DNA of 64,000 nucleotides, from positions 11,132 through 75,131 of the forward strand of contig CAZTAK010000001.1 in the NCBI GenBank assembly GCA_964611585.1. The letters run 5' to 3'. The position numbers and the translations under genes are program-made. This DNA is from an uncultured Alphaproteobacteria bacterium (GTDB lineage Bacteria > Pseudomonadota > Alphaproteobacteria > SHVP01). The notes under the pieces are model-generated. The model was not told the DNA's origin. It saw nothing but the letters and a program-made list of their open reading frames with translations, and did not search any database. Below, in pieces: positions 277-25,093 of this stretch (positions are counted from its first letter, which is position 1; each line of letters opens with the position of its first letter).

Positions 277-1260
277 ATGGGCGTGCTGGTGAATGGCATC
301 TGGACCGAAGACGAATCGGCCCTTACCCGTGCGGCCGAAGATGGCCGCTACCGCCGCGCCGGATCGGCGTTCCGAAACTGGGTAACGCCAGACGGCGACG
401 CCGGGCCAAGCGGCGTGGGCGGATTTGCGGCCGCCTCCGGGCGCTACCACCTTTACGTCGCGATCAACTGCCCGTGGGCGCACCGCACCATGATCTTGCG
501 CCGCCTCAAGGGGCTGGAAGAAGTGATCTCGATGTCGGTGGCGCTGCCGAAGCGCGACCCCCGCGGCTGGGTGTTCGGCACCGGCGATCCGGCGTTTGCG
601 GATCATCTGTTCGGCAAGGAAGCGCTCTACGAAATCTATGCCCTCGGGCAGTCCGATTATTCCGGCCGGGTCACGGTGCCGGTCCTGTGGGACAAAGAGC
701 GCGGCGTCATCGTCAACAACGAGTCTTCTGAAATCATCCGAATGCTGAGTACCGCGTTTGTGGAGTTCACCGACGACGCCACCGATTACTACCCCGAAGA
801 TTCGCGCGATACGATCGACGCCTGGAACGAACGAATCTACGAGACCGTCAATAACGGGGTCTATCGCACCGGCTTTGCCCGCAGCCAGTAGGCCTACGAG
901 GAGGCGTTCGAAACGTTGTTAGACACCCTCGATGCGCTCGACGCCCACCTCGCCTCGAACCGCTACATTGCGGGGTCCCGTCTGACCGAGGCCGACTGGC
1001 GCCTGTTCCCGACCCTGGTGCGGTTCGATGCCGCCTATTACGGCGCCTTCAAGTGCAATAAGCGGCGGATCGTCGATTACCCGAATCTGTGGGGCTATAC
1101 CCGCGAGCTCTATCAGACGCCGGGCGTGGCGGAGACCGTCGATACCGAGGTCTACAAGCAGGGCTATTACTCGATCAGCGCGGATCGGAATCCGCTCGGC
1201 ATCGTGCCCAAGGGGTCCGAGATCGACTTCACCGCCCCGCACGGGCGCGAGGGCATCTAG
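277..1260 (+). CDS. yqjG: glutathionyl-hydroquinone reductase (GST Xi class, YqjG-like); reading frame interrupted by an in-frame TAG at 889-891
   Basis: ORFs 277-891 and 916-1260 share one frame. The joined 327-aa product aligns end to end with YqjG (CPWAHRT active-site region, GRVTVPVLWDK, NESSEIIRM, VNNGVYRTGFA..SQ*AYEEA, TEADWRLFPTLVRFD). An RBS (GAAAGGA) is present. Confidence 0.8.
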
Positions 1261-1262
1261 CG

Positions 1263-1536
1263 CGGTCCGGTTTTGATCGGAACCGCTCTCATTTTTTTGT
1301 CGCTCACGGCAACGGACCTAAGGGTCAACGCCTGCGCGCGCGCCGGTCAAGCGGCGGCCCGCCTGGAGCAATATCCGCAGGGATTGAACCGGCGCGGCTC
1401 AAGCCCTTCGGGAAAATTGCTCTACTTTTCAAAAAGTTAGAGCAGCCTTATCCGTACAGGTATCGCCGAAAGCGATTCCACCTGAACGGATGCTGCTCTT
1501 GCGGCCAGAAGCGATTCCAGACGAACTGGAATCGCT
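1263..1536. repeat. intergenic REP/MITE-like repeat element, copy A (includes a ~145-bp internal insertion)
   Basis: About 100 bp plus the terminal 23 bp are near-identical to 12314-12457 (..cggaacc.ctctc.ttttttgtcgctcacggca.cggacc..cgcctgcgcg.gcgc..aagcggcgg.ccgcct..gattccagacgaac.ggaatcgc). It contains a hairpin plus T-run and lies between convergent genes. The extra 1366-1510 segment carries nested inverted repeats and a GGGATTGAACC (tRNA T-arm-like) motif. Confidence 0.6.
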
Positions 1537-2442
1537 TTAGTGCTGCGATTCGATCAGTTCGACCAGCCAGCCTTCCGGGGCGCGGATGGTCAACGCCGCA
1601 CGCCCGTCATAGGGCGCCGCGGCCGGACGCACCGGCGCAGACAAGGCCATTCGCTCGAACGGTTCGACCGACGGCACCGCGAGGCTCGCCAGCGCAAAGC
1701 CGGGCGGCAGCGCCCCCGGAGAGACCGGGCGATCCGCGGCGCGATGCGGATACTCGTCCACCTGAATCAGACTTTGACCGGTCAGTTGAAGTGTCGTCAT
1801 CGACAACGGATTGGCGCGCACATGGCCGTACCTGTCGCCTTCGTGGTAGACGCCGCGCTCATGCGCCGGCCGCGGGGAAATCGCGAATTTCACCGAGAGC
1901 CATTCGAGGGTTTCCTCGAACGAACGGGTCGCCAGCACCGCAATGAAGACCCGGTCCACCAGAGAGGCCGCGGCGGGCAAATCAAACCCCTGCACCGATT
2001 CGGGCAACGTCGTCAGGTAAAGGACTTCGCCGGCGGGCCCGATGGCTTGGGTGGCGCGGATCTCGGGAAAATTCTTGAGGCTTTGCGGCGGACCGATGAT
2101 CTCGAACGGCGAATCGATCAGCCGCGCGGCAACGGCATCGGTATCGCGAACCAGAATCTCGATGGCGGACCAGCCCGGGGTCGCCAGCGGCCGGTAAGCG
2201 GGATCGGCGGGTTGCTCGACCAGCCGGATGCCGCCGGGAGCGCCGCTTGCGGGCTGCATCCACACCGTGGCCGCGCCCGCCGCTTGCGGCGCGCCCCACG
2301 ATTCCGCCAGCTCGACCGGCACCTGTCCGGCGGACGTTTCGACGTAACCGAAGATGCGGGTATAGAGCGCTGCCGCTGCCGCCGCGTCCGGCACAGCGAC
2401 CGTCGCGGCAACGATCGGCCCCGCCCCGGCAACCGAATTCAA
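1537..2442 (-). CDS. VOC (glyoxalase/bleomycin-resistance/dioxygenase) superfamily protein, two-domain
   Basis: 301-aa ORF with GC-biased third positions typical of genes here. It shows two glyoxalase-like halves and no overlap conflict apart from antisense artefacts. Confidence 0.5.
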   Translation of the reverse strand: MNSVAGAGPIVAATVAVPDAAAAAALYTRIFGYVETSAGQVPVELAESWGAPQAAGAATVWMQPASGAPGGIRLVEQPADPAYRPLATPGWSAIEILVRDTDAVAARLIDSPFEIIGPPQSLKNFPEIRATQAIGPAGEVLYLTTLPESVQGFDLPAAASLVDRVFIAVLATRSFEETLEWLSVKFAISPRPAHERGVYHEGDRYGHVRANPLSMTTLQLTGQSLIQVDEYPHRAADRPVSPGALPPGFALASLAVPSVEPFERMALSAPVRPAAAPYDGRAALTIRAPEGWLVELIESQH

Positions 2443-2605
2443 GGGCCGCCCCTTTCAAACGCCGTCATTTCCACTCGTACCCATTGGCGTGGTCCGGCGT
2501 CGATCATTTACCATCGCGCCATCAATTTCAATTCACCGTGAAGATTCGTTGGCTTTGGCCGGAATTTTGCTATCTATCGCCAGGATGTTTAAGGGAAAGG
2601 TATCG

Positions 2606-3013
2606 ATGAAAGTTCTTGGTCTAGCAATCTCGTTCGGCATGGTTCTGTCGATTCTGAATTTCACCGGAGCAACGGCACAAGACGACGCGGAGCCATCGTT
2701 TGGCCAGCCCGGAGACATCGCGTTTGCCACCGAGTTGTGGCGCGAGCTCGAGGCAGCACGCCTGGTCGGGCCGCGGTCGATCATCGCGCAGCCCTACGAA
2801 GGCAGCGATCCGCACGGCGTCATTCTGATCACGCTCGATTCGACGGTCACGATGGAGGGTCGCGAAGACACCGTGATCGTGAAGAAGAACTACGCCGGGG
2901 AGGATATCTCGATTGAATCGGTCGCCACCAAACCGGATCAGTTTCTCGACGCGATCACGGTCATGTTCCGGCGTGAGCAGTCTGGGCGAAATTCTCCGCC
3001 GACGGAACGTTGA
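2606..3013 (+). CDS. secreted hypothetical protein with signal peptide; may continue through TGA 3011-3013 into an in-frame 43-codon segment with a CXXCH motif
   Basis: An RBS (AGGGAAAGG) sits 7 nt before ATG 2606. The product begins MKVLGLAISFGMVLSILNFTGATAQDD (signal peptide). ATG 3014 follows the TGA in the same frame and reads MINPRGLQLAGRVAKNPEDGCIACHRL... Confidence 0.5.
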   Translation: MKVLGLAISFGMVLSILNFTGATAQDDAEPSFGQPGDIAFATELWRELEAARLVGPRSIIAQPYEGSDPHGVILITLDSTVTMEGREDTVIVKKNYAGEDISIESVATKPDQFLDAITVMFRREQSGRNSPPTER

Positions 3014-3174
3014 TGATCAACCCGCGCGGCTTGCAGCTGGCCGGGCGCGTCGCCAAGAATCCTGAAGACGGCTGCATCGCCTGCCACCGCCTCGCCCCGG
3101 GCGAGGATCTCGTCTTTTTGCACGACCGGTTCGCGGTCGAGTAGGGTTTCGACAGACGCAGTGGGGGACAGAGA

Positions 3175-3783
3175 ATGTGGGACCAAACGAAGCCGGTCCG
3201 GCTCGCACTCATTGCCGCATTTCTGACTGCGGCGCTGGTGCCCGGTGCCTGGGCGGCGGATATGATCGACGGGCTGGCCCCGATCTCGCCCCAACCCCAG
3301 GCCGGCCAACTTCAACCCGGTCTCGCCGTCACCTATTATTTTCATATCTTCAATCATGTGAACGAAGTGATCGAGTTCGCCAAGTCGAACCCGGGGCAAA
3401 AAGGCGCGCCGATTCTGGCACTCGATTACAAAGTTGGTTCCGGGCCGATCCTGACCAGCGGGCGCACCAACGGGATCGGAGCGGCGATCAGCGGCCTGAT
3501 CCGCTTTCCCGCGACCGGCCTCTACCGCATGGTGGTGCAGTCGAACGACGGCGTCCGAATCACCATCGACAGCCAGATTGTCCTCTCTGACCCCGACGTC
3601 CACGCCGACCGCTTCTCGAAGATCATTCCGGTCCGCATTGACACGCCCGGCTGGTACCCGATCTCCGTCGATTACTTCGAAAGAAGGAACACCGCAACGC
3701 TCAGGCTCTATTGGCTGCCGCCCATGACCCGCGGTGGCCTGCGCTATGTGCCGGCCGATAATCTGGCCCATCTACCGGAATGA
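3175..3783 (+). CDS. secreted PA14-domain protein
   Basis: An N-terminal signal peptide (LALIAAFLTAALVPGAWA) is followed by a PA14-like pattern (YYFHIFNHV..GLYRMVVQSNDGVRITIDSQIV..GWYPISVDYFER). Confidence 0.55.
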   Translation: MWDQTKPVRLALIAAFLTAALVPGAWAADMIDGLAPISPQPQAGQLQPGLAVTYYFHIFNHVNEVIEFAKSNPGQKGAPILALDYKVGSGPILTSGRTNGIGAAISGLIRFPATGLYRMVVQSNDGVRITIDSQIVLSDPDVHADRFSKIIPVRIDTPGWYPISVDYFERRNTATLRLYWLPPMTRGGLRYVPADNLAHLPE

Positions 3784-3935
3784 CGCCCCTGATTTAGTCC
3801 GCCTGGACGGCGATTCATCAATTCTTAGGCACCCCAGCCGCAAGATTCGCCGCACCCCGCGATTTTTTGTATGGACTGTGGTGGCGACTGTTTCCGGCCC
3901 CGGCCGGACAGGAGTGTCCGCTTTGGGAGGAGCGA

Positions 3936-4370
3936 ATGCCGAACCCCTTCGATTACATGCAATTTATCAGCACCGATCAAGGCCGCGCCAAAGAATTCTA
4001 TTCGTCGTTGTTCGACTGGAGGACCGAAGACACTCCGATCGGAAATGACATGGTGCAGACCGTTATCCGCCAGCCCGACGGACCGTGGGGCGGGATCATG
4101 CCGTCAACCAATCCCAACGCGCCGTCGATGTGGCACGTCTATGTGCAGGTCGTGAACATGGACGAGACGCTGTTGAAAATAGTGCAACTGGGGGGCCAGA
4201 TTATCGTTCCCAAGACGCCGGTGGCAGGATCCGGATATATCGCCTTCATCCAGGACCCGACCGGTGCAATGCTTGGCGTGACCCAGCGCGACGAGATCGC
4301 AATCCATACCGCCAACCAACTGCTCGGCGCGTCGGACGCCGCCGCGCGCCCGCCACCCGGCAGCGACTAA
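3936..4370 (+). CDS. VOC/glyoxalase family protein
   Basis: An RBS (GGGAGGAGCGA) precedes ATG 3936. The product MPNPFDYMQFISTDQGRAKEFYSSLFDWRTED..WHVYVQVVNMDETL..GAMLGVTQ is typical of a small glyoxalase-fold protein. Confidence 0.6.
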   Translation: MPNPFDYMQFISTDQGRAKEFYSSLFDWRTEDTPIGNDMVQTVIRQPDGPWGGIMPSTNPNAPSMWHVYVQVVNMDETLLKIVQLGGQIIVPKTPVAGSGYIAFIQDPTGAMLGVTQRDEIAIHTANQLLGASDAAARPPPGSD

Positions 4371-4401
4371 CCGGAACGCGCTCGCAGCGTAAGGCGGCCC
4401 C

Positions 4402-5079
4402 TCAAAACGCCGGTTTGAAAAGACCGATTGCGGTATTCGCCACCACGATCGCCCAGAACGCCCAAATAACGGGTTTTGACCTGTCGATCGTGCCCTTGAT
4501 AATGGCCTCGACTTCGGGACTCGATCCCTCGCTCAAAAGGCGCGCGAATGCCGGACCGAACGGTGTCAGCATTTTGTTGACGGCGATCAGACCGGCGAAC
4601 GTGAATCCGTAAAGAAGCACTTTGAGCGCAAGCCAGGGTTCGGAAAATGGCTTGCCCGCCACGAACGAGCCGACCGCCGCCGCCAACACGACGACCAGCA
4701 GTACCCAGTTTATCGCCGAATCGAGACCATGCAGTTTCTTTCCCCAGTCGGGCGCCGTGGGACGGTGGATATTCCAGACCAGAAACAGCCACGCCGCCGC
4801 AACCACCCACACCAGGATCAGCCAACCCCCCTCGACCGGCGACAACCCGGTGCGCGCGGCCAGCGTCATGCCGGTCGGCAGCACCAGCACCATCGACAGG
4901 CGCGGAAATATATCAACTCCCTGCATGACGCGCGCCAGGACGGCGCGGGTCTCGGGCGAATACTCGGTGCGCACGAATAACTTCGCCGAATAGTAGGCGC
5001 CCATGTCGCCGCCGAGCCAGAACGCCATCACCAGAACGTGGATAAAGATCCAGAACGTGGTCCAGTCCCAAAAATCCAT
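4402..5079 (-). CDS. integral membrane protein of unknown function (about 5 predicted TM helices)
   Basis: 225-aa ORF with multiple long hydrophobic segments (FWIFIHVLVMAFWLGG, WLILVWVVAAAWLFLVW, VLLVVVLAAAVGSFVAG). Confidence 0.5.
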   Translation of the reverse strand: MDFWDWTTFWIFIHVLVMAFWLGGDMGAYYSAKLFVRTEYSPETRAVLARVMQGVDIFPRLSMVLVLPTGMTLAARTGLSPVEGGWLILVWVVAAAWLFLVWNIHRPTAPDWGKKLHGLDSAINWVLLVVVLAAAVGSFVAGKPFSEPWLALKVLLYGFTFAGLIAVNKMLTPFGPAFARLLSEGSSPEVEAIIKGTIDRSKPVIWAFWAIVVANTAIGLFKPAF

Positions 5080-5266
5080 GCCGCCCCTCCCGCACCGCTT
5101 TAGCCCCCGCCACAGAACCTAGCGCAGGACCCTCGGGCGGCGCAAACTTGGCGGAGGCCGATGCGTCCCTGACTTTCGCGCCACGGCGCCGCCGCGATTG
5201 CCATTGACGCCCATGCGTGCACCCGCGCACAGTGCGCAACGTGCAAGTCAACGTCGAAAAACCGGA

Positions 5267-7782: not shown

Positions 7783-7799
7783 CGGGACAAAGCCGCCCC

Positions 7800-10561: not shown

Positions 10562-11134
10562 ATGCCGAACCCCGTATTGCCGCGCGTTGCGCGCGAGGAC
10601 ATGCCCGAAGTCTTGCGGCAGGGCTATGACACCGCGAAAGAGGTGCGTGGCGACGCGACCTTCTTCGAGATCGGCGCGCACGCCCCCGAAATCCTGGACT
10701 GGTATCACAACAGCTTCTATTCGCGCGTATTCTACGGCGGCAAGGTGGACGTGAAGATCAAGGAACTTCTGCGCTACCGCCTGTCGATGACCCATGGCTG
10801 CGCGTTCTGCAACAAAGGCAACCGGCTCGCCGCCATCAAGGCGGGCGTAACCGAGGACCAGTTCCACAACATCATGAACGAATCGAGCGATGTGTTTTCG
10901 GACGGCGAGCGTGCGGTGCTGAAACTCGCCGATCAGATCGCCATTCCCAACATGCACGGCAATCTCGACAAGGCGCTCTATGACGCCCTGCGGCCCCACT
11001 TTTCCGACGGTGAAATCTTCGAACTCGGCGTGACCGCGGCGGTTCTCACCGGCATGGCGAAGTTCCTGTTCGTGTTCGATCTGGTCGAAAAGGAAGCAAA
11101 CTGCCCGATCGTGCCGCGCCAGGCGGCGGAATAG
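10562..11134 (+). CDS. carboxymuconolactone decarboxylase / AhpD-like family protein
   Basis: It carries the CMD-family core with a HGCAFCN (CxxC) motif and is about 190 aa. Confidence 0.8.
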   Translation: MPNPVLPRVAREDMPEVLRQGYDTAKEVRGDATFFEIGAHAPEILDWYHNSFYSRVFYGGKVDVKIKELLRYRLSMTHGCAFCNKGNRLAAIKAGVTEDQFHNIMNESSDVFSDGERAVLKLADQIAIPNMHGNLDKALYDALRPHFSDGEIFELGVTAAVLTGMAKFLFVFDLVEKEANCPIVPRQAAE

Positions 11135-11220: not shown

Positions 11221-11610
11221 ATGAACCGGCATTTCAATCCCGCCACCTCGTTTCCGCCGCAGGGGGCCTATAGCCACGGTGTCGATGTGCCGCCGGGATC
11301 GCGCATGGTGTATGTCGCGGGCCAGGTGGGCGTGGACAAAGACGGCAACACGCCCGAGGATTTCGCATCGGAAGCCGACAACGCCTTCGCCAACGTGGTG
11401 CGCGTTCTGGCGGACGCGGGCATGGAACCGACCGATATCGTCAAGCTCAACACCTACCTGACGCGCCCGGAAGACATGGCAACGCTGCGGCCGATTCGCG
11501 AGAAGCACTTCGGCGATCACGCCCCGGCCGCAACGCTGGTGTACGTCGCCGGCCTCGCCGCGCCGATCTGGCATATCGAGATCGAGGCGGTGGCGGCGAA
11601 GAAGGATTAG
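11221..11610 (+). CDS. RidA/YjgF/TdcF family reactive-intermediate deaminase
   Basis: The 129-aa product has RidA-family motifs (PPQGAYSHGV, YVAGQVGVD, NTYLT, HAPAATLVYVAGL). A strong RBS (AGGAGG) is present. Confidence 0.85.
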   Translation: MNRHFNPATSFPPQGAYSHGVDVPPGSRMVYVAGQVGVDKDGNTPEDFASEADNAFANVVRVLADAGMEPTDIVKLNTYLTRPEDMATLRPIREKHFGDHAPAATLVYVAGLAAPIWHIEIEAVAAKKD

Positions 11611-12939: not shown

Positions 12940-14217
12940 ATGGGAATGACGCTTTCCGAGAAGATAATCGCCAGGGCCTGCGGGCAGGATTCGGTGCGGC
13001 CGGGTGAAATCGTGACCTGCAAGGTCGATCTCGCCATGACCCACGATTCGAGCGGGCCGCGCCGCCAGGCGCCGCGCCTGAAGGAACTCGGCGTCAAGGT
13101 GTGGGACCCGGACAAGGTGGTGATCCTTACGGATCACTACGTTCCGGCGGTCGATGCGCTGAGCGCGGAGATCCTCAAACTCACACGCGACTGGGTCAAA
13201 GAACAGGGGATAAAGAATTTCTACGACATGCAGGGCATCTGCCATGTCGTGCTGCCCGAGCGCGGCCACCTGCACCCGGGCCAGTTCGCCGTCGGCGGTG
13301 ATTCCCACTCGCCCACCGGGGGCGCGTTCGGGACCTTCATGATCGGGGTCGGCGCCACCGATATGACCGGCGTTCTGGCGACCGGCGAAATCTGGGTCAA
13401 CGTACCGCCGACCATCCTGGTGCGCTGGACCGGCGATCTTCCCGAATACGTCACCGCCAAGGACATGATGCTGCGGCTGTGCGGCGAGATCGGCCTTAAC
13501 GGCGCCAACTACAAGGTCGTTGAGTTCGCCGGCAATGGCGTGAGCGCGCTCTCGATGGACGAACGCATGGTGCTGCCCAACATGACCGCCGAAGTCGGCG
13601 CCAAAACCGGCATCATTGCCCCCGACGCGGTGACGGTGGAATGGCTAAAAGCCGCGGGCGCGGAAACAGCGGGCGCGCTGGACTGGTTTTCGGACGAGGA
13701 CTGCGAGTACGAGAGTGTGTTGGAATTCGATGCCTCCACACTGTCACCACAGGTGGCGGCGCCGCACAGTCCGGCCAATGCCGCGCCGGTAGAGGACTTC
13801 AAGGACGTTGCCGTCGATCAGGCCTACATCGGCGCCTGCACCGGCGCGAAACTCGAAGACCTGCACATGGCGGCCGAGATCGTCCGCGGCCAGACCGTCG
13901 CCGAGGGAACGCGCTTTCTGGTGGCGCCCGCCTCAACGCGAATTACGGCGCAAGCCGCCGCCGACGGGACGCTGGCGACGCTGACCGCGGCAGGTGCAAT
14001 CTTGCTGCCGTCCGGTTGCGGCGCGTGTGCGGGCCTCGGCGCGGGCGTGTTGTCGGCAGGCGAGACCTGCATCTCGTCCACCAACCGTAATTTCAAGGGC
14101 CGCATGGGCCCCTCGGACGCTTCCGTTTATCTGGGATCGCCCTATGCAGTGGCGGCCGCGGCGGTGGCCGGGCACATCGCCGATCCCCGCGACATCAGCA
14201 ACCGGAGGGCATCATGA
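12940..14217 (+). CDS. aconitase-family dehydratase large subunit, archaeal-type LeuC-like (LeuC/homoaconitase/dimethylmaleate hydratase family)
   Basis: The 425-aa product aligns along its length with small-type LeuC (MGMTLSEKI, VDLAMTHD, GGDSHSPTGGAFG, the Fe-S cysteines in SGCGACAG and ISSTNRNFKGRMG). Confidence 0.85.
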   Translation: MGMTLSEKIIARACGQDSVRPGEIVTCKVDLAMTHDSSGPRRQAPRLKELGVKVWDPDKVVILTDHYVPAVDALSAEILKLTRDWVKEQGIKNFYDMQGICHVVLPERGHLHPGQFAVGGDSHSPTGGAFGTFMIGVGATDMTGVLATGEIWVNVPPTILVRWTGDLPEYVTAKDMMLRLCGEIGLNGANYKVVEFAGNGVSALSMDERMVLPNMTAEVGAKTGIIAPDAVTVEWLKAAGAETAGALDWFSDEDCEYESVLEFDASTLSPQVAAPHSPANAAPVEDFKDVAVDQAYIGACTGAKLEDLHMAAEIVRGQTVAEGTRFLVAPASTRITAQAAADGTLATLTAAGAILLPSGCGACAGLGAGVLSAGETCISSTNRNFKGRMGPSDASVYLGSPYAVAAAAVAGHIADPRDISNRRAS

Positions 14218-14720
14218 GCGGTACGGACGGCGGCGGCACCGCCTGGGTCTATGGCGACGACATCGACACGGATTCGCTGGCGCCGGGGCTCTATCTCAAA
14301 GGGTCGATGGAGGAGATGGCGAAGCATTGCCTCGAAGCGATCGACCCCACCTTCGCCGCCGAATCCAAGGAAGGCGACTTCGTGGTGGCGGACGAGAATT
14401 TCGGCATCGGTTCGTCGCGCGAACAGGCGGCGCAGTGCCTGTCGATATTGGGCGTCAATGTGGTGCTGGCCAAGAGTTTCGCGCGTATCTTTTACCGCAA
14501 CGCTTTCAACGTCGGTGTCGTGCCGCTGGTGTTCAAAGACGCGGACAAAATCAAGAAAGGCGACCGCCTGCGGGTCGATGCGGCTGCGGGCACGATCGAA
14601 AATCTTACCAGGAACGAGACCTACACCTGCGAGACCGTACCACCGCACCTGATGGAAATCGTTGCCGACGGCGGCCTGATGCCGCATCTGAAAAAGAAAC
14701 TGAAAGGAAAAACGACGTGA
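14214..14720 (+). CDS. aconitase-family dehydratase small subunit (LeuD-like)
   Basis: ATGA overlap with the upstream stop. The product has the LeuD-like swivel domain (VYGDDIDTD, GIGSSREQA). Confidence 0.85.
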   Translation: MSGTDGGGTAWVYGDDIDTDSLAPGLYLKGSMEEMAKHCLEAIDPTFAAESKEGDFVVADENFGIGSSREQAAQCLSILGVNVVLAKSFARIFYRNAFNVGVVPLVFKDADKIKKGDRLRVDAAAGTIENLTRNETYTCETVPPHLMEIVADGGLMPHLKKKLKGKTT

Positions 14721-15601
14721 CCGATTATCAATCGCTCAAGAGCCAGCTTGCAGGCGATGACATCATCGTCGCGCCCGGCTGCTATGACGCCTATTCGGCA
14801 ATGATGATCGCCAAGGCCGGCTTCAGCGTGGCCTACATCTCCGGCGCCGGCGTGTCGTTTACGCGCATCGGACGTCCCGATATCGGCCTGGTCAGCATGC
14901 ACGAAGTGGCCGAGACCGTGAGCGCGATCGCAGAATTCAACGACATCCCGCTGGTCATCGACGGCGATACCGGATTCGGTAATGCGCTCAACGTAATGCG
15001 CACGGTGCGCCTGTTCGAACGCGCGGGCGCGAGCGCGATTCAGCTCGAAGACCAGACCATGCCCAAGCGCTGCGGTCACCTGAGCGGAAAGTCGCTGGTG
15101 CCGGATGCGGAAATGGTCGGCAAGATCAAGGCCGCGACCGACGCACGGCGCTCGGACCAAACACTGATCATCGGCCGCACCGACGCGATCGCGGTCGAGG
15201 GGTTCGAACGCGCGCTCGAGCGCGCCGAACGCTACGTCGAGGCGGGCGCGGACGTCCTGTTCATCGAGGCGCCGCAGACCGACGATCAGATGAAGGCCCT
15301 GACGGCGCAGTTCAAAGGCCGGGTCCCGCTCCTGGCGAACATGGTCGAGGGCGGCAAGACGCCGCTGAAAAGTGCGGCCGAGTTGCAGGCGCTCGGCTAT
15401 TCGCTGGTGATTTTTCCGGGCGGGCTGATCCGGGCCTATTCGTTCATGGCCGCGGAATACCTGAAGAGTTTACGCGAAAACGGCACCACGGCGCCCTACC
15501 GCAACCGGATGCTGGATTTCGATCAGCTCCAGGAGGTGCTGGGAACGGCCTCGGTGCTGGAGGCGGGCGGGCGCTACGACGCCGAGAACTTCGAGGCCTG
15601 A
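14717..15601 (+). CDS. isocitrate lyase/PEP mutase superfamily lyase (2-methylisocitrate lyase / 2,3-dimethylmalate lyase-like)
   Basis: The GTG start overlaps the LeuD-like stop (GTGA). The product carries the ICL/PEPM signature KRCGH plus DGDTGFG and IEDQ. Confidence 0.8.
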   Translation: MTDYQSLKSQLAGDDIIVAPGCYDAYSAMMIAKAGFSVAYISGAGVSFTRIGRPDIGLVSMHEVAETVSAIAEFNDIPLVIDGDTGFGNALNVMRTVRLFERAGASAIQLEDQTMPKRCGHLSGKSLVPDAEMVGKIKAATDARRSDQTLIIGRTDAIAVEGFERALERAERYVEAGADVLFIEAPQTDDQMKALTAQFKGRVPLLANMVEGGKTPLKSAAELQALGYSLVIFPGGLIRAYSFMAAEYLKSLRENGTTAPYRNRMLDFDQLQEVLGTASVLEAGGRYDAENFEA

Positions 15602-15629
15602 CAAGCGAGGCATACGAAGCGGACGCGCG

Positions 15630-16496
15630 ATGACCGAACGCTTCACGTTTTCGAGCCCGGACGCCCTGGCGGCACGCATCCCTGACGGCGCGCACCTGGC
15701 GATCCCGGCCGACCGGCGCGGCGTGTCGATGGCAACGACGCGCGCCCTTATCCGCCGCAGCGCGCGCGATCTCCGGCTCGTCGCCGTCCCCACCAGCGGG
15801 CTTCAGGCTGATCTCCTGATCGGCGCCGGCGCAGTCGCCGAAATCGAAACATCGGCCGTCTCGCTGGGCGAATACGGCCCGGCGCCGCGGTTTGGCGAGG
15901 CCGTCGAGCAGGGACGCATCGTCATCTTGGACGCTACCTGCCCCGCCATTCACGCCGGATTGCACGCCGCCGAAAAAGGCATCCCGTTCATGCCGCTCAG
16001 GGGAATTCTGGGCTCGGACCTGCTGGTCCACCGCCCCGACTGGACAGTGATCGAAAATCCCCTGGGGCCGGTGCCGGAAGAACGGCCCGGCACCACGGCA
16101 GAGGACTTTGCCGATCCCATCGTCATTCTGCCGGCGATCCGGCCCGATTTCGCGCTCTTTCATGTGCCGCTCGCCGACCGGGCCGGCAATATCTGGGTCG
16201 GGCGCAACCGCGATCTCATTACCATGGCGCATGCGGCGCGCGAGACCCTGGTGACAGTGGAAGCAATCGCCGATCACGATCTCATGGCCGATCGCGAATG
16301 GGCGGCGGGGACGCTTTCGTCGTTCTATGTGAGTGGCATCGCCGTTGCCGAGAAGGGCGCCTGGCCGACGGCGATGCCGGGCACCTACGAAGAAGACGCA
16401 GAGCACATGCGCCGCTACGCCGAACAAGCCCGCAGCGGCGAGGGATTCGCGGCCTACCTCGAGGAATTCGTTTTTCAGGACCTTTCCCTCGGGTAG
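15630..16496 (+). CDS. CoA-transferase family I, subunit A
   Basis: The 288-aa product resembles glutaconate/3-oxoadipate CoA-transferase A subunits. It sits immediately upstream of the B subunit. Confidence 0.7.
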   Translation: MTERFTFSSPDALAARIPDGAHLAIPADRRGVSMATTRALIRRSARDLRLVAVPTSGLQADLLIGAGAVAEIETSAVSLGEYGPAPRFGEAVEQGRIVILDATCPAIHAGLHAAEKGIPFMPLRGILGSDLLVHRPDWTVIENPLGPVPEERPGTTAEDFADPIVILPAIRPDFALFHVPLADRAGNIWVGRNRDLITMAHAARETLVTVEAIADHDLMADREWAAGTLSSFYVSGIAVAEKGAWPTAMPGTYEEDAEHMRRYAEQARSGEGFAAYLEEFVFQDLSLG

Positions 16497-16501
16497 CGCT
16501 C

Positions 16502-17224
16502 ATGGATGCCGGGCCCGAAGAGTTCCTGATCTGCGTCATCGCGCGGCTTCTCGCCGGCACGCGCCATATCGCGGTCGGCGCCCTGTCGCCGATACCCGGA
16601 TCGGCGGCGCTGTTGCACCAGGCTGAGAGCCGCGAGCCGGTTCGCGTCTCGGTTCTCGACAGCCGGCGCAATTTCTGGTCGGACGGCAGCAAGGAACTGT
16701 TCGACTGCGCGGCGCAGGGACGCATCGACGCCTTTTTCCTCGGCGGCGCCCAGATCGACGGCCAGGGCAACGTCAACCTCGTCGGCGTCGGTGGTTATCC
16801 CCGGCCGAAGACGCGCTTTTCGGGATCGTTCGGATCGGCCTATCTCTATTTTCTCGTGCCGAGGGTGATTCTGTTCCGAGAGGAGCACACGCCGCGGACG
16901 CTGGTCGATAAAGTCGATTTCATATCGAGCCCCGGAACGAGCCCGGACAACGTCTATCGCCGCGGCGGGCCCTCGGCGCTGGTGACGGGAAAAGCGCTGT
17001 TCACCTTCGATGAGGCGGGGCGCCGCTTTCGCCTCGCCAGCAGCCATCCGGGATACACCGCGCCGGACATCGAGGCGGCGACAGGATTTGCCTTCGAGAC
17101 GCCTGCCTCGGTCCCGGCAACAGCGGCCCCCGATGCGGCCACGCTCAATCTGTTGCGGGGACCCGTGGCCCGCGAGATCGCCGAGACCTACCCCCGCTTC
17201 GCCGCACGGGTTTTCGGCGACTAA
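16502..17224 (+). CDS. CoA-transferase family I, subunit B
   Basis: The ATG lies 6 nt after the subunit A stop. The B-subunit-like sequence (GGAQIDGQGNVNLVGVG) is present. Confidence 0.65.
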   Translation: MDAGPEEFLICVIARLLAGTRHIAVGALSPIPGSAALLHQAESREPVRVSVLDSRRNFWSDGSKELFDCAAQGRIDAFFLGGAQIDGQGNVNLVGVGGYPRPKTRFSGSFGSAYLYFLVPRVILFREEHTPRTLVDKVDFISSPGTSPDNVYRRGGPSALVTGKALFTFDEAGRRFRLASSHPGYTAPDIEAATGFAFETPASVPATAAPDAATLNLLRGPVAREIAETYPRFAARVFGD

Positions 17225-17377: not shown

Positions 17378-18496
17378 ATGCGCGCCGATATGACCCACGA
17401 CGAGACCGCGCAGATGGATTTTATCATGAGCCTCTACCGGCACCTCGGGCGCAACATCGTGCCCGGGCACCGCGAGGTTTATGACGGGCGCGTCAAACCC
17501 GCGTTCGAACGCAAGAACGGCCGGGCGCCGAAAACCCGCCACGAAGTTCGCAAGGCAATGCTGGACGACCCCTACTTTCAGTTCTGGAGCCATCTGCGCC
17601 TTTACAGCCAGGCCAAGAGCTATGACCTGAGGCGCGAGATCGTCGACCGGCAATTGGACGACCTGATCGAGCGCGCCAAACCACGCGCGTCCGACAAGGG
17701 CACGGTGGAACTCGATGCCGATTTCGAGATTCCGAAATATCAGGCGGCGTTCGACATGCACTGGATGCCGGGCAGCTTCTACACCGAATTCGCCGAGGAC
17801 GACGTCGCCGCGGGCGTCATGTATGACACCGGCGGGCTCTATATCGCGCTGTCAGGTTCGATCGGCGCCTACAACGACGGCGCCGGCCATGCGGTGGTGC
17901 ACTGGCTCAACGAAAATCACCCGGATTTCAAACCGAAGCGCGTGCTCGACGAGGGCTGCACCGCAGGCGGCAATACATTGCCCTTCAAGTATGCCTAGCC
18001 CGATGCGGAGATAACCGCCATCGACATCGGCGCACCGGTACTGCGCTATGCCCACCGCCGGGCCGAGAGCCTCGGCTATGAAGTCCATTTCTCGCAGCAG
18101 AATGCCGAAGAAACGAGATATGAAGACGAGAGCTTCGATCTTGTGGTTTCGACCATGTTTTTGCACGAAACCTCGAACAAGGCGGTGCACAACATCGTTG
18201 CCGAATGCCACCGGCTGTTGAAACCGGGCGGGCTGATGGTGCATGTCGAGCAACCGCCGTTCGCGCGCTTCGACGATCCCTTCGATCAGTTCGTGCGCGA
18301 CTGGGACACGCACAACAACAACGAGCCGTTCTGGGGCCCGATGCACGACATGGACCTGCCCCAGGTAGCGGTGAAGGCGGGCTTCGCGCGCGATGACGTC
18401 ATCATGGAAATGGCGAAATATTGCGCCCCCACCAAAGAGAACCCCTACCGCGAGGCGCCGGGCGGCTGGTTCATCTTCGGTGCCTGGAAACGGTAA
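17378..18496 (+). CDS. class I SAM-dependent methyltransferase; reading frame interrupted by an in-frame TAG at 17996-17998
   Basis: ORFs 17378-17998 and 18143-18496 are in the same frame. Methyltransferase motif I (VLDEGCTAGG) is followed by KYA-TAG-PDAEITAIDIG and then by DLVVSTMFLHE and LLKPGGLM (post-I motifs) after the stop. Confidence 0.6.
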
Positions 18497-18518: not shown

Positions 18519-18550
18519 AGGCGGGCGCCTCAAGGGGCGCCCGTTTTTGT
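18519..18550 (+). terminator. rho-independent terminator after the methyltransferase gene
   Basis: The stem GGCGGGCGCC-tcaag-GGGCGCCCG is followed by TTTTTGT. Confidence 0.5.
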
Positions 18551-18592
18551 CTGGCCCGCCCCGTTCCGACCGGCGTGCCCGACCGCTTGCGC

Positions 18593-19075
18593 TCAGTAGT
18601 CCTCGGCGTCGTAGACCCGGCCCTTGGCGTCGCCGGGGCTGCGGATCAGGCGCATGCGCGCTTCACCGCGCGGCTTTTCCGACCACGTCGAATAGCCGGG
18701 AACGTATTCGGTGCGGCTCTCGCTGGTCAGGTTCCCTTCCTTGGCACTGCCGGAATAGGTCGTCGTGGTGCGCTCGTAGCCCGGGTGGTAGTCCTCGACG
18801 GTTTCCGACCATGCGTTGAAGAATTCGAACGCGAAATAATCGTAGCCTTCGCCGCGGGCGATCTCGGCGGCGCGGCGGTACAGGTAGCTTTCGATGGTCG
18901 CGACGCTGGTATAGGCGTTGCCATAGGCCTCGATGTAGAAAGTCTGCGGCCCGGTTTGCGAGTGACTGACGCCGCCGAATATCCCCGGCGGCCCGTAGGG
19001 CGTCGCGCAGGCGGCGAGCAACAGAAGAAGCGCGAGGACCGGGGCGGAACGGAAATGCAGCCGGGCAGATGCCAT
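18593..19075 (-). CDS. lipoprotein of unknown function
   Basis: ATG 19075 gives MASARLHFRSAPVLALLLLLAAC (signal peptide plus lipobox Cys). The product is Tyr/Glu-rich. Confidence 0.5.
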   Translation of the reverse strand: MASARLHFRSAPVLALLLLLAACATPYGPPGIFGGVSHSQTGPQTFYIEAYGNAYTSVATIESYLYRRAAEIARGEGYDYFAFEFFNAWSETVEDYHPGYERTTTTYSGSAKEGNLTSESRTEYVPGYSTWSEKPRGEARMRLIRSPGDAKGRVYDAEDY

Positions 19076-19264
19076 AGCTATGGGGCCTCGCTGGCGCCGG
19101 GTGCGGCGTCGGCCGGATCGACCGGCCGCGGCGTCTGCCGGATCGGCCGGGTTCCGCCTCGCGAGGGCGCGCCCCCGCAACCCCGAAGCCTCGATTCGAA
19201 GACTGGGGCGGCCGCCGGTGCCGTGGTTCTAGGGCCGATGCGAAGACAATAGCGATCCGCCCGC

Positions 19265-19490
19265 CGGGCCGTTACGCGGCAAATTGCCGCCCGGCGGCGG
19301 GGCGGCGGCGCCGGCGACGGTCCGATCTCTACGGTTTAGGCGGCGCGCCAAGCGCGCATCAAGTTCGACCGGTTTACGCGGCGCGCCCAGCGCGAATCAT
19401 GTTCGACCGGCTTACGCGGCGCCACAGGCGCCACGGTCCGGTCTCTCGGCTTACGCGGCGCCTCGGGGCGCCACGGTCCGGTCGCTATTG
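19265..19490. repeat. tandem array (about 5 units) of a 38-39 bp GC-rich repeat containing GGCGCC...GGCGCC palindromes
   Basis: The units cggtttaggcggcgcgccaagcgcgcatcaagttcgac, cggtttacgcggcgcgcccagcgcgaatcatgttcgac, cggcttacgcggcgccacaggcgccacggtccggtctct and cggcttacgcggcgcctcggggcgccacggtccggtcgct are contiguous. The array lies between the 3' end of a deacetylase gene and the 5' end of a lipoprotein gene. Confidence 0.7.
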
Positions 19491-20450: not shown

Positions 20451-20452
20451 GG

Positions 20453-21394
20453 TCAGGTCCTCGGCGGGTGTTTCTTGTTGAATTCGCTGGTCGCGTTGAC
20501 CCATTCGTCGTAGCCGTGCTCGAAGAAGTGTTCGGCGATCTGGGTGCCGGTAGTGACCCACACCTTGTCGTGGCCGGTAATGTATTTGAGCGCCTCGTCA
20601 AGGGCGCCGATGCGGTGTGCCTGACCGACCGCATAGGCGTGCAGCGGAATGCACATGATGGTGCCCGAATTCTCACCCTCGGCGTAGAGGCGGTCGAAGT
20701 TGCCCTTGAGCCAGTCGAAATAGACCCGCGGCGGCACGAAGTGCTGGTTGTAAACGATGATGTCGTTCATCTCGAGGGAATAGGGAATCGAGATCAGGCG
20801 GCCTTCCTTGACGTTGACCGGACACGGCTGGTCGTCGTGGAACAGATCGCAGGTGTAAAAAAAATCGTTCTTCGCCAGCAGATCCATCGTGCGCTCGGTG
20901 TGCGTTAGCGCGGGCGCGAGATAGCCGCGGATACGCTGGCCGGTGTGCTGCTGCACCGACTTGATCGAGTCATCGAGGATCGCCTGCTCCTGCGCCTCGT
21001 TCATGTTGTAGGAATAGCGCGTGTTGTAGATGCCGTGGGAATAGAACTCCCACTCGCGCTTGACGCATTCCTCGACGATTTCGGGGTGGTGGTCCAAAAG
21101 CGCCACCGACAGCGAGATCGACCCCCTGACACCGTACCGGTCCAACACCTCCATCAGGCGCCAGTGGCCGACGCGGTTGCCGAAATCGCGTTCGGAATAG
21201 GGCACCAGATCGGGCCGCGGCTTGGGCCACGGCTGTCGTGCCGGGTTGGAGGGCCCGTCGAGTTCGTAATACTCGATGTTGGGCGCTACCCAGAAAGCGA
21301 TGCGCGCACCGTCCGGCCATTCGATCTTGGGACGGTTGATATATGGCAGATAATCGTAAAGCCCGAGGTCGCTTTTCACGGACCGACTCCCCAA
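20453..21394 (-). CDS. polysaccharide-deacetylase-fold hydrolase of the PuuE family (paralog)
   Basis: The 313-aa product has WPDGARIAFWV, DFGNRVGHWR and HGIYN motifs shared with PuuE-type cyclic amide hydrolases. Confidence 0.7.
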   Translation of the reverse strand: MGSRSVKSDLGLYDYLPYINRPKIEWPDGARIAFWVAPNIEYYELDGPSNPARQPWPKPRPDLVPYSERDFGNRVGHWRLMEVLDRYGVRGSISLSVALLDHHPEIVEECVKREWEFYSHGIYNTRYSYNMNEAQEQAILDDSIKSVQQHTGQRIRGYLAPALTHTERTMDLLAKNDFFYTCDLFHDDQPCPVNVKEGRLISIPYSLEMNDIIVYNQHFVPPRVYFDWLKGNFDRLYAEGENSGTIMCIPLHAYAVGQAHRIGALDEALKYITGHDKVWVTTGTQIAEHFFEHGYDEWVNATSEFNKKHPPRT

Positions 21395-21413
21395 TAATTG
21401 ATGACTCGCCCGG

Positions 21414-22088
21414 TCAGTTGACCGGCTGATAGTTGTTCAGATAGTCGCGCACAGTTTCGAACGATTCTATATCGCCGTACTTGAGCTGCATGTCGGCAAG
21501 GTTGGCAAAGTGCGGGATTTCGTGTTTGTCGGCGACGCCTTCTTCGCAGACGATGGTGCGATAGCCGTGCGACAGCCCGTCCACGCAGGTGGCGCGCACG
21601 CAGCCCGAAGTCGAGCCGCCGTTCAGGATCAACGTATCGATACCGTGGTACACCAGCAGCGAGGCCAGCGGCGTTTCATAAAACGCGCTCGCCATACGTT
21701 TGAGGTAGATCAGGTCGCGGCCGCGGTCGATCTTGAGGCGGTCGTCGAATTCGTTCCGCTCCGAGCCGATCTTGATGTTCTGGAGCGAATCCGGGGTATC
21801 GGTGCGCGTGCCCCAGACACCGCAGTCCTCGCCCGAATCGGCATAGCCGACGTGGGTCCACACCACCGGCAGGCCCTTGGATCGGCAGATTTCAGCCAGT
21901 TCGTTGACGTAATCGAGCTGTTTGGGGTCGGTTTCGTAAGCGGTCTTGAACAGGTCGGTGCGGGTGTAGGCCTTTTGCAGGTCGATGTTCACCAAGGCCG
22001 CCTTGCGACCGAATCCGAATCTAGCCCGGTCCGGATTGGCTTTGATGCTGGCGAAATACTCTCGTGGCGTGAGATCCGACGCTTCCAT
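21414..22088 (-). CDS. isochorismatase-family cysteine hydrolase (amidohydrolase)
   Basis: ATG 22088 has an RBS. The product carries the isochorismatase-like fold signature (ALVNIDLQKAY, the catalytic Cys in GGSTSGCV, and TIVCEEG). Confidence 0.7.
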   Translation of the reverse strand: MEASDLTPREYFASIKANPDRARFGFGRKAALVNIDLQKAYTRTDLFKTAYETDPKQLDYVNELAEICRSKGLPVVWTHVGYADSGEDCGVWGTRTDTPDSLQNIKIGSERNEFDDRLKIDRGRDLIYLKRMASAFYETPLASLLVYHGIDTLILNGGSTSGCVRATCVDGLSHGYRTIVCEEGVADKHEIPHFANLADMQLKYGDIESFETVRDYLNNYQPVN

Positions 22089-22187
22089 GGGTTTCCTGCC
22101 TGATTGATCTTTTTGAAAGGACTTTGAGCTAGATTCGGGGAGCGTTCCGGGATTGTCAAGCGGGGTTCGAATCCGGTCGGCGCTGCA

Positions 22188-22538
22188 TTGCAACCCGCGC
22201 GCCCTCTACGAACCGGCGGACCGCCCGGCGGGTTTTCGGTCCGCACCTGCACCTCCGGAGCGGAGGCGCTGACGGCGCTTGATGAATTCAAGCCCGACCT
22301 GGTTCTGCTCGACGTCATGATGCCCGGGATGGACGGCCCGGCGACCCTGCGCGCCATCCACGATATCAAAGGGTACGCCGACCTCCCGGTCGTCTTCTTG
22401 ACGGCGAAATTCCGGCCGCACGAGATCGGGCACTACGTCGATCTCGGCGCCATCGACGTGATCGCCAAACCGATCGACCCCCTGGACCTGCCGGCGCAAC
22501 TACAGGCGATTTGGACGCGCTATCATGCAAACGCCTGA
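22188..22538 (+). CDS. response-regulator receiver domain protein lacking the N-terminal beta1/alpha1 (acidic-pocket DD) region; TTG start
   Basis: It retains the phospho-acceptor region (LVLLDVMMPGMDG), T/K positions (VVFLTAK) and the C-terminal AKPIDPLDL. No upstream frame supplies the missing N-terminal residues. Confidence 0.5.
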   Translation: MQPARPLRTGGPPGGFSVRTCTSGAEALTALDEFKPDLVLLDVMMPGMDGPATLRAIHDIKGYADLPVVFLTAKFRPHEIGHYVDLGAIDVIAKPIDPLDLPAQLQAIWTRYHANA

Positions 22539-22872
22539 AGCCCGCGCCGAACTCTCCGAAGCGCTTGCGCGCCTCAACAAGAAATTTTCCGAATCGCTGC
22601 CGAAACGGATTTTGGCGCTTGAAAACGACCTCGCGGAATCGCGGCGCACCGGCTATGCCGCCGAATCGTTAGGGAAACTCTACCGTGCCGCCCACAGCCT
22701 TGCCGGGGCGGCAGGAACCTTCGGACGACCCCAACTCAGTGCGGTTGCGCAGGTGCTGGCGGAATATCTGAACCGGCACGCCGATGGTGGCGCCGAGTTC
22801 AGGAGCGCCGAGGCGGATCAAATCGATGCCCTGACGGCGAGCGTCATCAAGGTCGCCAACGCCGACCGCTAG
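22525..22872 (+). CDS. Hpt (histidine phosphotransfer) domain protein
   Basis: The HxxxG motif AHSLAGAAGTFG is present. The gene overlaps the upstream receiver gene end by 14 nt. Confidence 0.6.
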   Translation: MQTPEARAELSEALARLNKKFSESLPKRILALENDLAESRRTGYAAESLGKLYRAAHSLAGAAGTFGRPQLSAVAQVLAEYLNRHADGGAEFRSAEADQIDALTASVIKVANADR

Positions 22873-22901
22873 GCCACCTGCTCGGACTGAAGCGTCTTTC
22901 G

Positions 22902-23597
22902 TCAGTTGCGCTCGATCCAAGACCGGGCGCGCTGCACGCCGAGGGCAACCTGTGCCGGCGTCAGGCGTTCGCGCACGGCATCGCGATTGGCCGCAGCTCC
23001 CGGGTACCCGCGCTGCGCCAGGACTTCGAACCAAGTAAAGGATTCGATCATATCCTCGGGAACCCTACTGTTGCCGAGCAGGACGGCGACGATGTACTGC
23101 GAGCCCGCAAAATCTTGATAGGCGGCGAACCGCGCCCAACGCAGGGCCGCGGCCGGATCCTTTTCGACACCATCGCCGCGGAGGTACATCTGGCCGAGCA
23201 GGTGGCGGGCCGCGACGACGCCCTGGCCGGCTGCAAGCCTGAACCAGCGCGCTGCTCCGGAATAATTCTGCGCGACGGCGCCGCCGTTGGTGCCGGTACC
23301 GTTGTAGAGCATGAATCCGAGGCTGAATTGGGCCTCGGCGTAGCCCTGATTCGCAGCTTGGCGATACCATTCCGCGGCTTGGGCGTAGCTGCGCGCCACC
23401 CCCTGCCCGTGATCGTACATGGCGCCAACGATATATTGAGCCTCTGCGTCGCCTCCCTCAGCGAGGCCGCGCAGACTGGACCACGCAGCCGGGTAATCGC
23501 CCCGCAGATAGGCGGCCTGCCCATCGGCGAGGTCGGCGCGGACGCCCGATGCCGTCCCGATCAGGAGTAGTGCCGCCAGCAGGACAAGCTTCTTCAT
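22902..23597 (-). CDS. Sel1-repeat secreted protein
   Basis: A signal peptide (MKKLVLLAALLLIGTASG) is followed by multiple Sel1/TPR-like units (AEAQYIVGAMYDHGQGV, AEAQFSLGFMLYNG). Confidence 0.8.
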   Translation of the reverse strand: MKKLVLLAALLLIGTASGVRADLADGQAAYLRGDYPAAWSSLRGLAEGGDAEAQYIVGAMYDHGQGVARSYAQAAEWYRQAANQGYAEAQFSLGFMLYNGTGTNGGAVAQNYSGAARWFRLAAGQGVVAARHLLGQMYLRGDGVEKDPAAALRWARFAAYQDFAGSQYIVAVLLGNSRVPEDMIESFTWFEVLAQRGYPGAAANRDAVRERLTPAQVALGVQRARSWIERN

Positions 23598-23983
23598 GCC
23601 TGGTCCTCCATTACGGAACCGAACAGCGCCGGCCCGTCTAAAACTGGTTCGCGTATTATATCGTCTGCGGAACCACCGGCGAAGCCGCTAAGACGGCTCG
23701 CGGGTGCGACAAATCGTGGCGGGGCGGGGCAGCGGCTATCGGCCAGCGCCGGACTTGAACGAGTTCAGGGCGTCGGCGGCAGACCCTTGCGGCCAGCGCC
23801 GATTCGCGGTGCGGATGGCGCCGGTGTCCGGAATCCGGCAACCGCACGGTTTGCTCTAGGTCGTGGACTCACAAACAACGCAAGGCATTGAAACGACTTG
23901 TTTCTTCGCCAGCCACAGTTTGTTCCAAACAGGTCAGTAACCCTCTGATCTGTTTTGGTTTTCTGGACCAATGGGTACGTGAC

Positions 23984-24532
23984 CTAATTTGTCCGACTGA
24001 ACTTTTCGATCGCCAGTTCCAGCGCCTCGATCAGTTCGGCGCCCGTCGTGCCGCCGTCGCCCTCGATCCGCTCGCGGATCACGACGTTCATCGTGTCGAT
24101 GTGCGCCTTGACGATTTCGACATGGTCGTCGGTGGTTCCCGCACTGCGCCCGGTAAACTGGTGCAGCGACTTGGCGAACGTTGTAATCAGCGGATACCCG
24201 AAAGTACCGCCCTGCCCGCGCATGTCGTGGGCGATCTCGTTGATCTTGCGATAGGGCCGGTAGCGCTCCTTTTCGGGCGCAGACTGCGCCACCTTGAGGG
24301 CGGCGACGAGTTGATTCACCGAACCGCTGACCCATTCGGGATAGCCTTCCGAGAACTTGGAGATTTCGGCCATCGCCTCTTCCAGGGTTTCGCTGGCAAA
24401 GCCCAGGCTGCCGCCGGCAACGCCGCTGCCTGCCTTGTCCTTGAGCTTGTTGCGCAGCCGGAAATACCGCACCTTGGCCTTTTTCTTGGCTCGCATGCCA
24501 GGTGCGGTCGGGCGCCTGTTTTCGGAGGCCAT
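23984..24532 (-). CDS. Hpt-like domain protein with a basic N-terminal region
   Basis: The motif IAHDMRGQGGTFGYPLITTFA fits the Hpt HxxKG..G pattern. The start is 3 nt downstream of the (readthrough) receiver gene stop. Confidence 0.45.
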   Translation of the reverse strand: MASENRRPTAPGMRAKKKAKVRYFRLRNKLKDKAGSGVAGGSLGFASETLEEAMAEISKFSEGYPEWVSGSVNQLVAALKVAQSAPEKERYRPYRKINEIAHDMRGQGGTFGYPLITTFAKSLHQFTGRSAGTTDDHVEIVKAHIDTMNVVIRERIEGDGGTTGAELIEALELAIEKFSRTN

Positions 24533-24535
24533 CGG

Positions 24536-25093
24536 TCAGAAATTCCCGTCGTCGTAAATGACTTCCGCTTCCTTGTCGGTGATGATGCGGCGCTCGCCTT
24601 TGCTGGTCTCGGCACGGCGGCGCCGCCGGTCCGGACCAAAATATACCGGTGTCAGCACGTACTGACGCGGCCGTTCGATCAACTGGCCAAGTATCCGGGT
24701 CAAACTCTGGATCTAATAGGGCTTGCCAAGAACTTCGGTGGCGCCGAGATCGCGCGCCTCGCGCACCTTTTCCATATCGGCGTGGCCGGTGACGAGGATG
24801 AAGGGCATGAACTTGTCGGGAGAGTCCTTGTGCCGCCGCAGCCACTTCAACAGCATAATGCCGTCGACGGGCGACATCTCCCAGTTCGACATGATGAAAT
24901 CCACGCTGCTGATTCCAGCCTTGCGTGGATCATCTTGCATGAGCTTGAGAAGTTCGATCGCCTCGCCGCCGTCTCCGGCAATTACGACGTTTCCGCTACC
25001 GAGGCGCAACAATATCGAACGCAACAGGTTGCGCATGCACGAATTGTCGTCGACAACGAGAACCGTAAACAGGCTCAGGTTGTAACCATCCAT
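24536..25093 (-). CDS. CheY-like response-regulator receiver; reading frame interrupted by an in-frame TAG at 24713-24715
   Basis: The N-terminal 126 aa form a canonical REC (LVVDDNSCMR, the acceptor Asp in FIMSNWEMSPVDG, FILVTGH, GKPY). The frame continues after the TAG as IQSLTRILGQLIERP (alpha5) for 58 codons to TGA 24536-24538. Confidence 0.65.

Follow-up and report, generated by a model that had tools for sequence, protein, structure and literature searches.

The subject of this analysis is a stretch of 64,000 nucleotides from an uncultured alphaproteobacterium (NCBI GenBank assembly GCA_964611585.1, contig CAZTAK010000001.1, positions 11,132 to 75,131 of the forward strand; hereafter the window, meaning the stretch at its full length), in which three conserved genes are interrupted by in-frame TAG codons. 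The window has about 63% G+C and holds about 63 genes according to a gene call based on codon usage, five of which are disrupted and all of these lie in the first 25 kb: three carry a nonsense codon, one a frameshifting deletion and one a deletion of its 5' part (Table 1). The genes affected are those for a YqjG-like glutathione S-transferase (GST), a P460-like haem protein, a methyltransferase and two receivers of one cluster, which has the order response regulator (RR), Hpt, Sel1, RR. Pfam coverage shows the genes from 28 to 64 kb to be complete.

Table 1. Position in the window, strand and state of the disrupted genes and of neighbouring features mentioned in the text (ORF, open reading frame)
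Feature	Coordinates	Strand	Remarks
YqjG-like Xi-class GST / glutathionyl-hydroquinone reductase	277..1260	+	328 codons; TAG at 889-891 (codon 205)
Cytochrome P460-family gene ("CXXCH protein")	2606..3144	+	Split into ORFs of 135 aa and 43 aa; deletion near 2975-2979
Class I S-adenosylmethionine (SAM)-dependent methyltransferase	17378..18496	+	TAG at 17996-17998 (codon 206)
RR receiver upstream of Hpt	22188..22538	+	5'-truncated by a 204-bp deletion, junction at 22225-22232
CheY-like single-domain receiver	25093..24536	-	TAG at 24715-24713 (codon 127); 185 aa if intact
Hpt-like gene downstream of the CheY-like receiver	24532..23984	-	
Lipoprotein gene	18593..19075	-	
Operon-like cluster	12940-17224		
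Phosphoglycerate kinase (PGK) gene	48144..49343		

Interrupted genes in the first 25 kb

Direct translation and Pfam searches confirmed that the three in-frame TAGs in the GST, the methyltransferase and the CheY-like receiver are real and lie where the initial annotation had placed them, and full-length homologs align on both sides of each TAG in all three genes. The TAG of the GST falls between the Pfam domains GST_N_2 and GST_C_2, exactly at the boundary between the N-terminal and C-terminal domains, with the catalytic motif (CPWAHR) intact and a TTG codon (916) eight codons downstream. The TAG of the methyltransferase (residue 206) is located inside a full-model match to Methyltransf_25 (PF13649 and related families; residues 189-285) and is directly preceded by motif I (LDEGCTAGGN), the Rossmann fold being cut after this motif. 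Inside the Response_reg match of the CheY-like receiver (residues 11-133), the TAG (residue 127) precedes helix alpha-5, and this helix is lost together with the conserved FGPDRRRR tail.

Examination of the same receiver yielded further observations. Its phospho-acceptor position is occupied by Asn (FIMSNWEM, compared with FVISDWNM in CheY), which we considered as a sign of extra decay and rejected, the two closest homologs having Asn as well (a trait of the subfamily) and the more distant ones Asp. In many homologs, which are about 360 aa long, the receiver and the FGPDRRRR tail are joined to an Hpt-like domain, whereas here this domain is encoded by a separate downstream gene. The TGA at 24538-24536, which separates the receiver from the Hpt-like ORF in the same frame, was examined as a candidate recoded stop and rejected in favour of an old gene split, because the two genes overlap out of frame in the closest relative.

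The in-frame TGA that had been proposed for a fourth gene, encoding a CXXCH protein of the cytochrome P460 family, was not borne out. The N-terminal ORF (2606..3013), which includes a signal peptide, and the C-terminal piece that contains the CXXCH motif (3013..3144) do not share a frame, and one more stop lies in the frame that leads up to the supposed TGA. Where the full-length homologs, which are up to 66% identical to the window gene, have a block of 11 conserved residues (GYDxxNQxWF), the window has 5 nt, and the lesion is hence an out-of-frame deletion of about 28 nt. When the translation is repaired, the Pfam P460 match spans the junction, with a score below the curated cut-off; a sequence search of the PDB with the P460-like protein gave nothing useful. 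The statement in the initial annotation that there are no frameshifts was consequently wrong, as the P460 gene has a frameshifting deletion.

The second receiver, located upstream of Hpt, has lost its start codon and acidic pocket through a deletion of 204 bp that lies between 8-bp direct repeats (CCGGCGGG). Three of the metagenome contigs described below (L019-L021) carry the extra 204 bp at the junction and have an intact receiver ORF of 138 aa, in which the Response_reg match covers model positions 1-110; in the window the match is reduced to 22-110. Two other contigs (L011 and L012) share the deletion.

Intact relatives and recurrence of the lesions among metagenomes

Alignment with homologs identified the residue that each TAG has replaced. 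The site in the GST is occupied by Glu in the Escherichia coli YqjG protein and in two other solved homologs (PDB 3r3e, 6gzf and 4fqu), within the motif SQ-E-AY, and the change was GAG to TAG. In the methyltransferase the site is covered by 18 of the aligned homologs, 17 with Trp and one with Tyr (motif DA-W-PDAE), the change being TGG to TAG. For the CheY-like receiver the ancestral codon is preserved in a sister haplotype as TCG, the homologs mostly having Ser in the motif KP[FY]-S, and the change was TCG to TAG. All three TAGs are thus the result of a single G/C-to-A/T substitution, and three different residues (Glu, Trp and Ser) were replaced. Mutation in bacteria is usually biased from G/C to A/T.

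The closest intact homologs of the disrupted genes are 66-73% identical to them, and between the window and these homologs the databases hold only truncated fragments of the same population; the only near-identical entry for the methyltransferase, for example, is a fragment of 206 aa. No intact yqjG allele above 73% identity was present in the protein database, and we found no intact yqjG or methyltransferase allele within the population. TAG at the lesion sites was found in no relative, and the relatives carry sense codons there. Two syntenic relatives, at 66-73% identity, have intact copies: one (L119) of the GST (325 aa) and of the P460 gene (202 aa), and the other (L120) of the CheY-like receiver (185 aa) and of the methyltransferase (387 aa). 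Compared with its nearest homolog, the methyltransferase is 76% identical after the TAG and 70% before it; relative-rate counts for the two halves were not significant, this comparison having no power to date the lesion. With a population divergence of only about 0.3%, conservation after the TAG indicates no more than that the lesion is young.

The truncated products were looked up by exact sequence in public assemblies, comprising ENA re-assemblies (FUCH22-1 and FUCH17-1), submitter assemblies at NCBI, Logan assemblies of single runs and a JGI metagenome. These represent at least 6-7 distinct BioSamples, some of the ENA and NCBI contigs probably being two assemblies of one sample. Runs in which this population occurs include SRR13782130, SRR13782125, SRR4465032 and SRR28208100, and samples include those of the series SAMN180559xx and SAMN215752xx. 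The 204-aa fragment of the GST was found in 11 contigs, the 206-aa fragment of the methyltransferase in 8, the 126-aa fragment of the receiver in 8 and the 135-aa fragment of the P460 protein in 17, with an identity of 99.1-100% between contigs and window. Considering the contigs that cover each lesion site, the yqjG TAG (12/12), the P460 junction (12/12) and the methyltransferase TAG (8/8) were the only alleles seen. The other two lesions, namely the CheY-like TAG and the 204-bp deletion, segregate with an intact allele. At the polymorphic site of the CheY-like receiver 8 contigs have TAG and two (L011 and L012) have TCG (Ser), and these two represent a distinct haplotype of single-nucleotide polymorphisms (SNPs) in which the receiver gene is called at its full length of 185 aa. 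Between the sampled haplotypes there are about 38 synonymous and about 30 nonsynonymous SNPs, the CheY-like nonsense change being one of the latter.

The two segregating lesions (22225-22232 and 24714) are 2.5 kb apart and occur in three combinations: deletion and TAG in the window, deletion and TCG in L011 and L012, and TAG without the deletion in L019-L021. The combination present in the window was seen in no other single contig. The existence of these three haplotypes implies that the population recombines, that the 8-bp repeats have given rise to the deletion more than once, or that the window sequence is a chimeric consensus.

Some contigs also differ from the window in length at sites outside genes. 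At 19103-19127 the window has a 25-bp imperfect tandem duplication (GCGGCGTCGGCCGGATCGACCGGCC, then GCGGCGTCTGCCGGATCGGCCGGGT) that L011, L012 and L015 lack; we considered this indel as a frameshift and rejected it, since it is located upstream of the start codon of a lipoprotein gene (Table 1) and is non-coding. A 1-bp indel at 19447 is intergenic, as is a length difference of about 24 nt between window positions 1565-1606 and positions 6548-6565 of contig L001, which falls between the GST gene and a minus-strand gene of 301 aa.

TAG as a terminator and the search for recoding

The use of TAG as a genuine stop codon in the window was examined from the terminators of 60 genes, of which 36 are TGA, 18 are TAG (30%) and 6 are TAA. 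All the TAG terminators that had been named in the initial annotation (168-170, 1258-1260, 11132-11134, 11608-11610, 16494-16496 and 19485-19487) are correct. One of them, the stop of a RidA/L-PSP gene (11608-11610), reads TAA in contig L011, and this synonymous stop polymorphism shows TAG to be used in the population like any other terminator. With regard to the base that follows the stop (+4) and to the distance to the next in-frame stop, TAG terminators resemble TGA terminators, showing neither avoidance nor back-up stops. In-frame TAG, in turn, was found only 3 times in about 18,700 codons. Comparison of the stop context at interrupting and terminating TAGs, which the initial annotation had suggested as a check, revealed no context common to the interrupting sites: in the GST, the methyltransferase and the receiver the +4 bases are G, C and A and the preceding codons CAG, GCC and TAT, respectively. 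The initial judgement that a wholesale change of the genetic code is unlikely was upheld, TAG ending 18 of the 60 genes and the in-frame TAGs aligning with Glu, Trp and Ser.

That all three premature stops are TAG calls for a comparison with chance. Given the codon usage of the window, TAG makes up 54-56% of random single-base nonsense mutations, TAA and TGA accounting for about 28% and 16%, and because its expected share is about 0.55, the probability of finding TAG in three of three cases is approximately 0.17, which is not significant. With the same codon usage, nonsense changes amount to 3.9% of random nonsynonymous changes, and the one observed among about 30 nonsynonymous SNPs is of the expected order of magnitude.

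The window was also re-read with TAG as a sense codon, seeking coding-like sequence on both sides of every TAG, and no further TAG-interrupted genes were found. Several pairs of ORFs in the same frame were rejected as interrupted genes, those at 22208, 33584, 52446 and 62313 because one side was non-coding-like and those at 35294 and 32403 as being adjacent genes of an operon. No tRNA genes, and thus no tRNA with a CUA anticodon, were detected in the 64-kb window, in its flanks of a few kb or in the other fetched loci that were scanned, and the window had no match in Rfam. Pfam families related to pyrrolysine (Pyl) were absent both from the Pfam scans of the window genes and from the precomputed gene tables of overlapping loci.

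Origin and context of the lesions

The lesions and their recurrence, the residues that the TAGs have replaced, the polymorphic site and the ordinary role of TAG in ending genes are direct observations. On the strength of these results we consider it very probable that the disrupted genes are ordinary, young pseudogenes and that the marine alphaproteobacterium concerned, which is uncultured, was sampled as a natural population. One G/C-to-A/T substitution in each case would have converted GAG, TGG and TCG into TAG in the GST, the methyltransferase and the CheY-like receiver, respectively, and we infer that ribosomes would terminate at the three TAGs, the genes being lost or crippled, and that relaxed selection would be the cause. 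The same relaxed selection on dispensable accessory genes would admit the deletions in the P460 gene and in the second receiver. TAG would predominate among the nonsense codons only through the richness of the genome in G+C at third codon positions (GC3), which fills it with codons one step away from TAG. Among the explanations that the initial annotation had offered, very recent nonsense mutation is the one supported by our results, owing to the polymorphism of the CheY-like TAG, the intact syntenic relatives and the mixture of lesion classes.

The lesions belong to a class that is already known, the single-lesion bacterial pseudogenes. According to one study (Cooley & Wright 2024, PMC11017572), bacterial pseudogenes usually carry one lesion without further decay, and the absence of other decay in the disrupted genes is the normal state of a pseudogene. 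Like the unitary pseudogenes of bacteria, the genes analysed here present a single lesion in an otherwise intact ORF, with the ancestral codon one step away and intact syntenic orthologs, their lesions are polymorphic between strains and nonsense, frameshift and deletion are mixed. They differ from these in nothing essential; the local density (5 of about 63 genes, all within 25 kb) is somewhat high for a presumably free-living planktonic bacterium. Five disrupted genes among about 63 lie at the high end for free-living bacteria and within the normal range.

Some of the results weigh against this interpretation and have to be set beside those that support it. No sampled contig lacks the TAG of yqjG or that of the methyltransferase, and neither gene shows extra decay beyond its TAG. 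Read-through would predict the same undecayed pattern, and a young lesion at about 0.3% divergence predicts it equally. Moreover, the five lesions are confined to the first 25 kb, the other 39 kb having none, a distribution for which the only account we can offer is that the genes concerned are accessory ones.

According to one alternative, which we regard as unlikely, the truncated or split products still work, the two domains of the GST being made separately, for example, through re-initiation at the TTG, or the genes have been lost adaptively, as by selection against the phosphorelay, which has been hit twice. In favour of such a split, the TAG of the GST stands exactly at the domain boundary with the TTG shortly after it, but the methyltransferase is cut within its Rossmann fold and the CheY-like receiver is deprived of alpha-5 and of the FGPDRRRR tail. 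Adaptive loss would fit the presence of two independent lesions in the receivers of one RR-Hpt-Sel1-RR cluster, both at appreciable frequency; with two loci only, however, parallel loss is statistically inseparable from drift.

Partial amber suppression or programmed read-through, in which a tRNA(CUA) or leaky termination would yield full-length GST, methyltransferase and receiver and the TAG alleles would be tolerated or even regulatory, appears very unlikely. It could account for the two TAGs that occur in every sampled contig with the downstream motifs intact, and for the fact that the premature stops are all TAG, but the latter is expected by chance with the probability given above, and the TAGs have replaced three different residues, including a near-invariant Trp, at sites that share no context. 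TAG ends 30% of the genes without avoidance or back-up stops, the relatives lack TAG at these sites, no tRNA was found in the window or in the flanking loci and Rfam gave no match. In addition, the adjoining frameshift and deletion lesions would be beyond rescue by a suppressor. The option of amber suppression raised in the initial annotation has therefore found no support, given the replacement of Glu, Trp and Ser, the segregating TCG allele, the commonness of TAG as a terminator and the deletions alongside. A more restricted form of the same idea, by which a natural low-level amber suppressor or leaky UAG termination keeps the TAG alleles of the GST and the methyltransferase partly functional, we judge to be highly improbable; if true, it would explain why these alleles persist unchanged and without decay in metagenomes of separate studies.

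Reassignment of TAG and natural amber suppression, as in TAG-recoded phages and suppressor tRNAs, share with this window the presence of in-frame TAGs in conserved genes; here, in contrast, there are 3 TAGs per about 18,700 codons, 30% of the terminators are TAG and one of the TAGs is polymorphic with a sense codon. A change of code is excluded because TAG terminators are abundant. Decoding of UAG as pyrrolysine (pylTSBCD, with the methyltransferases MtmB, MtbB and MttB) likewise involves an in-frame UAG in a "methyltransferase" while UAG is also used as a stop. The enzyme encoded in the window is, unlike these, a class I SAM-dependent methyltransferase rather than a corrinoid-dependent methylamine methyltransferase, its homologs have Trp at the site and the other TAGs replace Glu and Ser. 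Pyrrolysine appears to be excluded in practice, because the methyltransferase is SAM-dependent and its homologs carry Trp.

Errors of sequencing or assembly, in which spurious substitutions make internal stops, are extremely improbable as the source of these lesions. Such errors are a known artefact and the source of many internal-stop "pseudogenes" in RefSeq, as shown in the study cited above (PMC11017572), where internal stops split real genes as they do here; and the window haplotype, with the 204-bp deletion and the CheY-like TAG together, is in no other single contig. Unlike those artefacts, the lesions described here recur in independent assemblies: each of the TAGs and the P460 junction was seen in 8-12 contigs, which differ in sample, study label (FUCH17-1 and FUCH22-1) and assembler, and the alternative allele of the CheY-like receiver is linked to a distinct SNP haplotype. 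The identical lesions in many independent assemblies and samples thus contradict the option of sequencing or assembly errors. Deliberate strain engineering, also raised in the initial annotation, is contradicted by the recurrence of the lesions in wild metagenome populations.

If the lesions are young pseudogenes, as we consider very probable, they have little significance beyond annotation, where the genes should be flagged as pseudogenes and not as separate ORFs or candidates for recoding. They may serve nevertheless as a control for genome scans, in that most random nonsense mutations in GC3-rich genomes give TAG, and a run of in-frame TAGs does not argue for suppression. Real pseudogenes can be told quickly from artefacts by whether the lesion recurs in metagenome assemblies made independently. 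The two lesions that segregate in one phosphorelay cluster give a brief view of ongoing gene loss in a wild population, probably from an oxygen-deficient zone (ODZ). The sample accessions had no match in literature searches; BioProject PRJNA350692 appears in papers on ODZs and may be linked to these samples.

With respect to the organism itself, the PGK is at most about 61% identical to GTDB species representatives among the matches listed, which include Terasakiella, Thalassospiraceae and metagenome-assembled genomes of Rhodospirillales, and the bacterium seems to branch deeply within the Alphaproteobacteria. Immediately upstream of the interrupted methyltransferase gene there is an operon-like cluster (Table 1) that encodes large and small subunits of the aconitase family, a protein of the phosphoenolpyruvate mutase/isocitrate lyase family and the A and B subunits of a coenzyme A transferase. 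The cluster has the look of a module for the breakdown of an organic acid.

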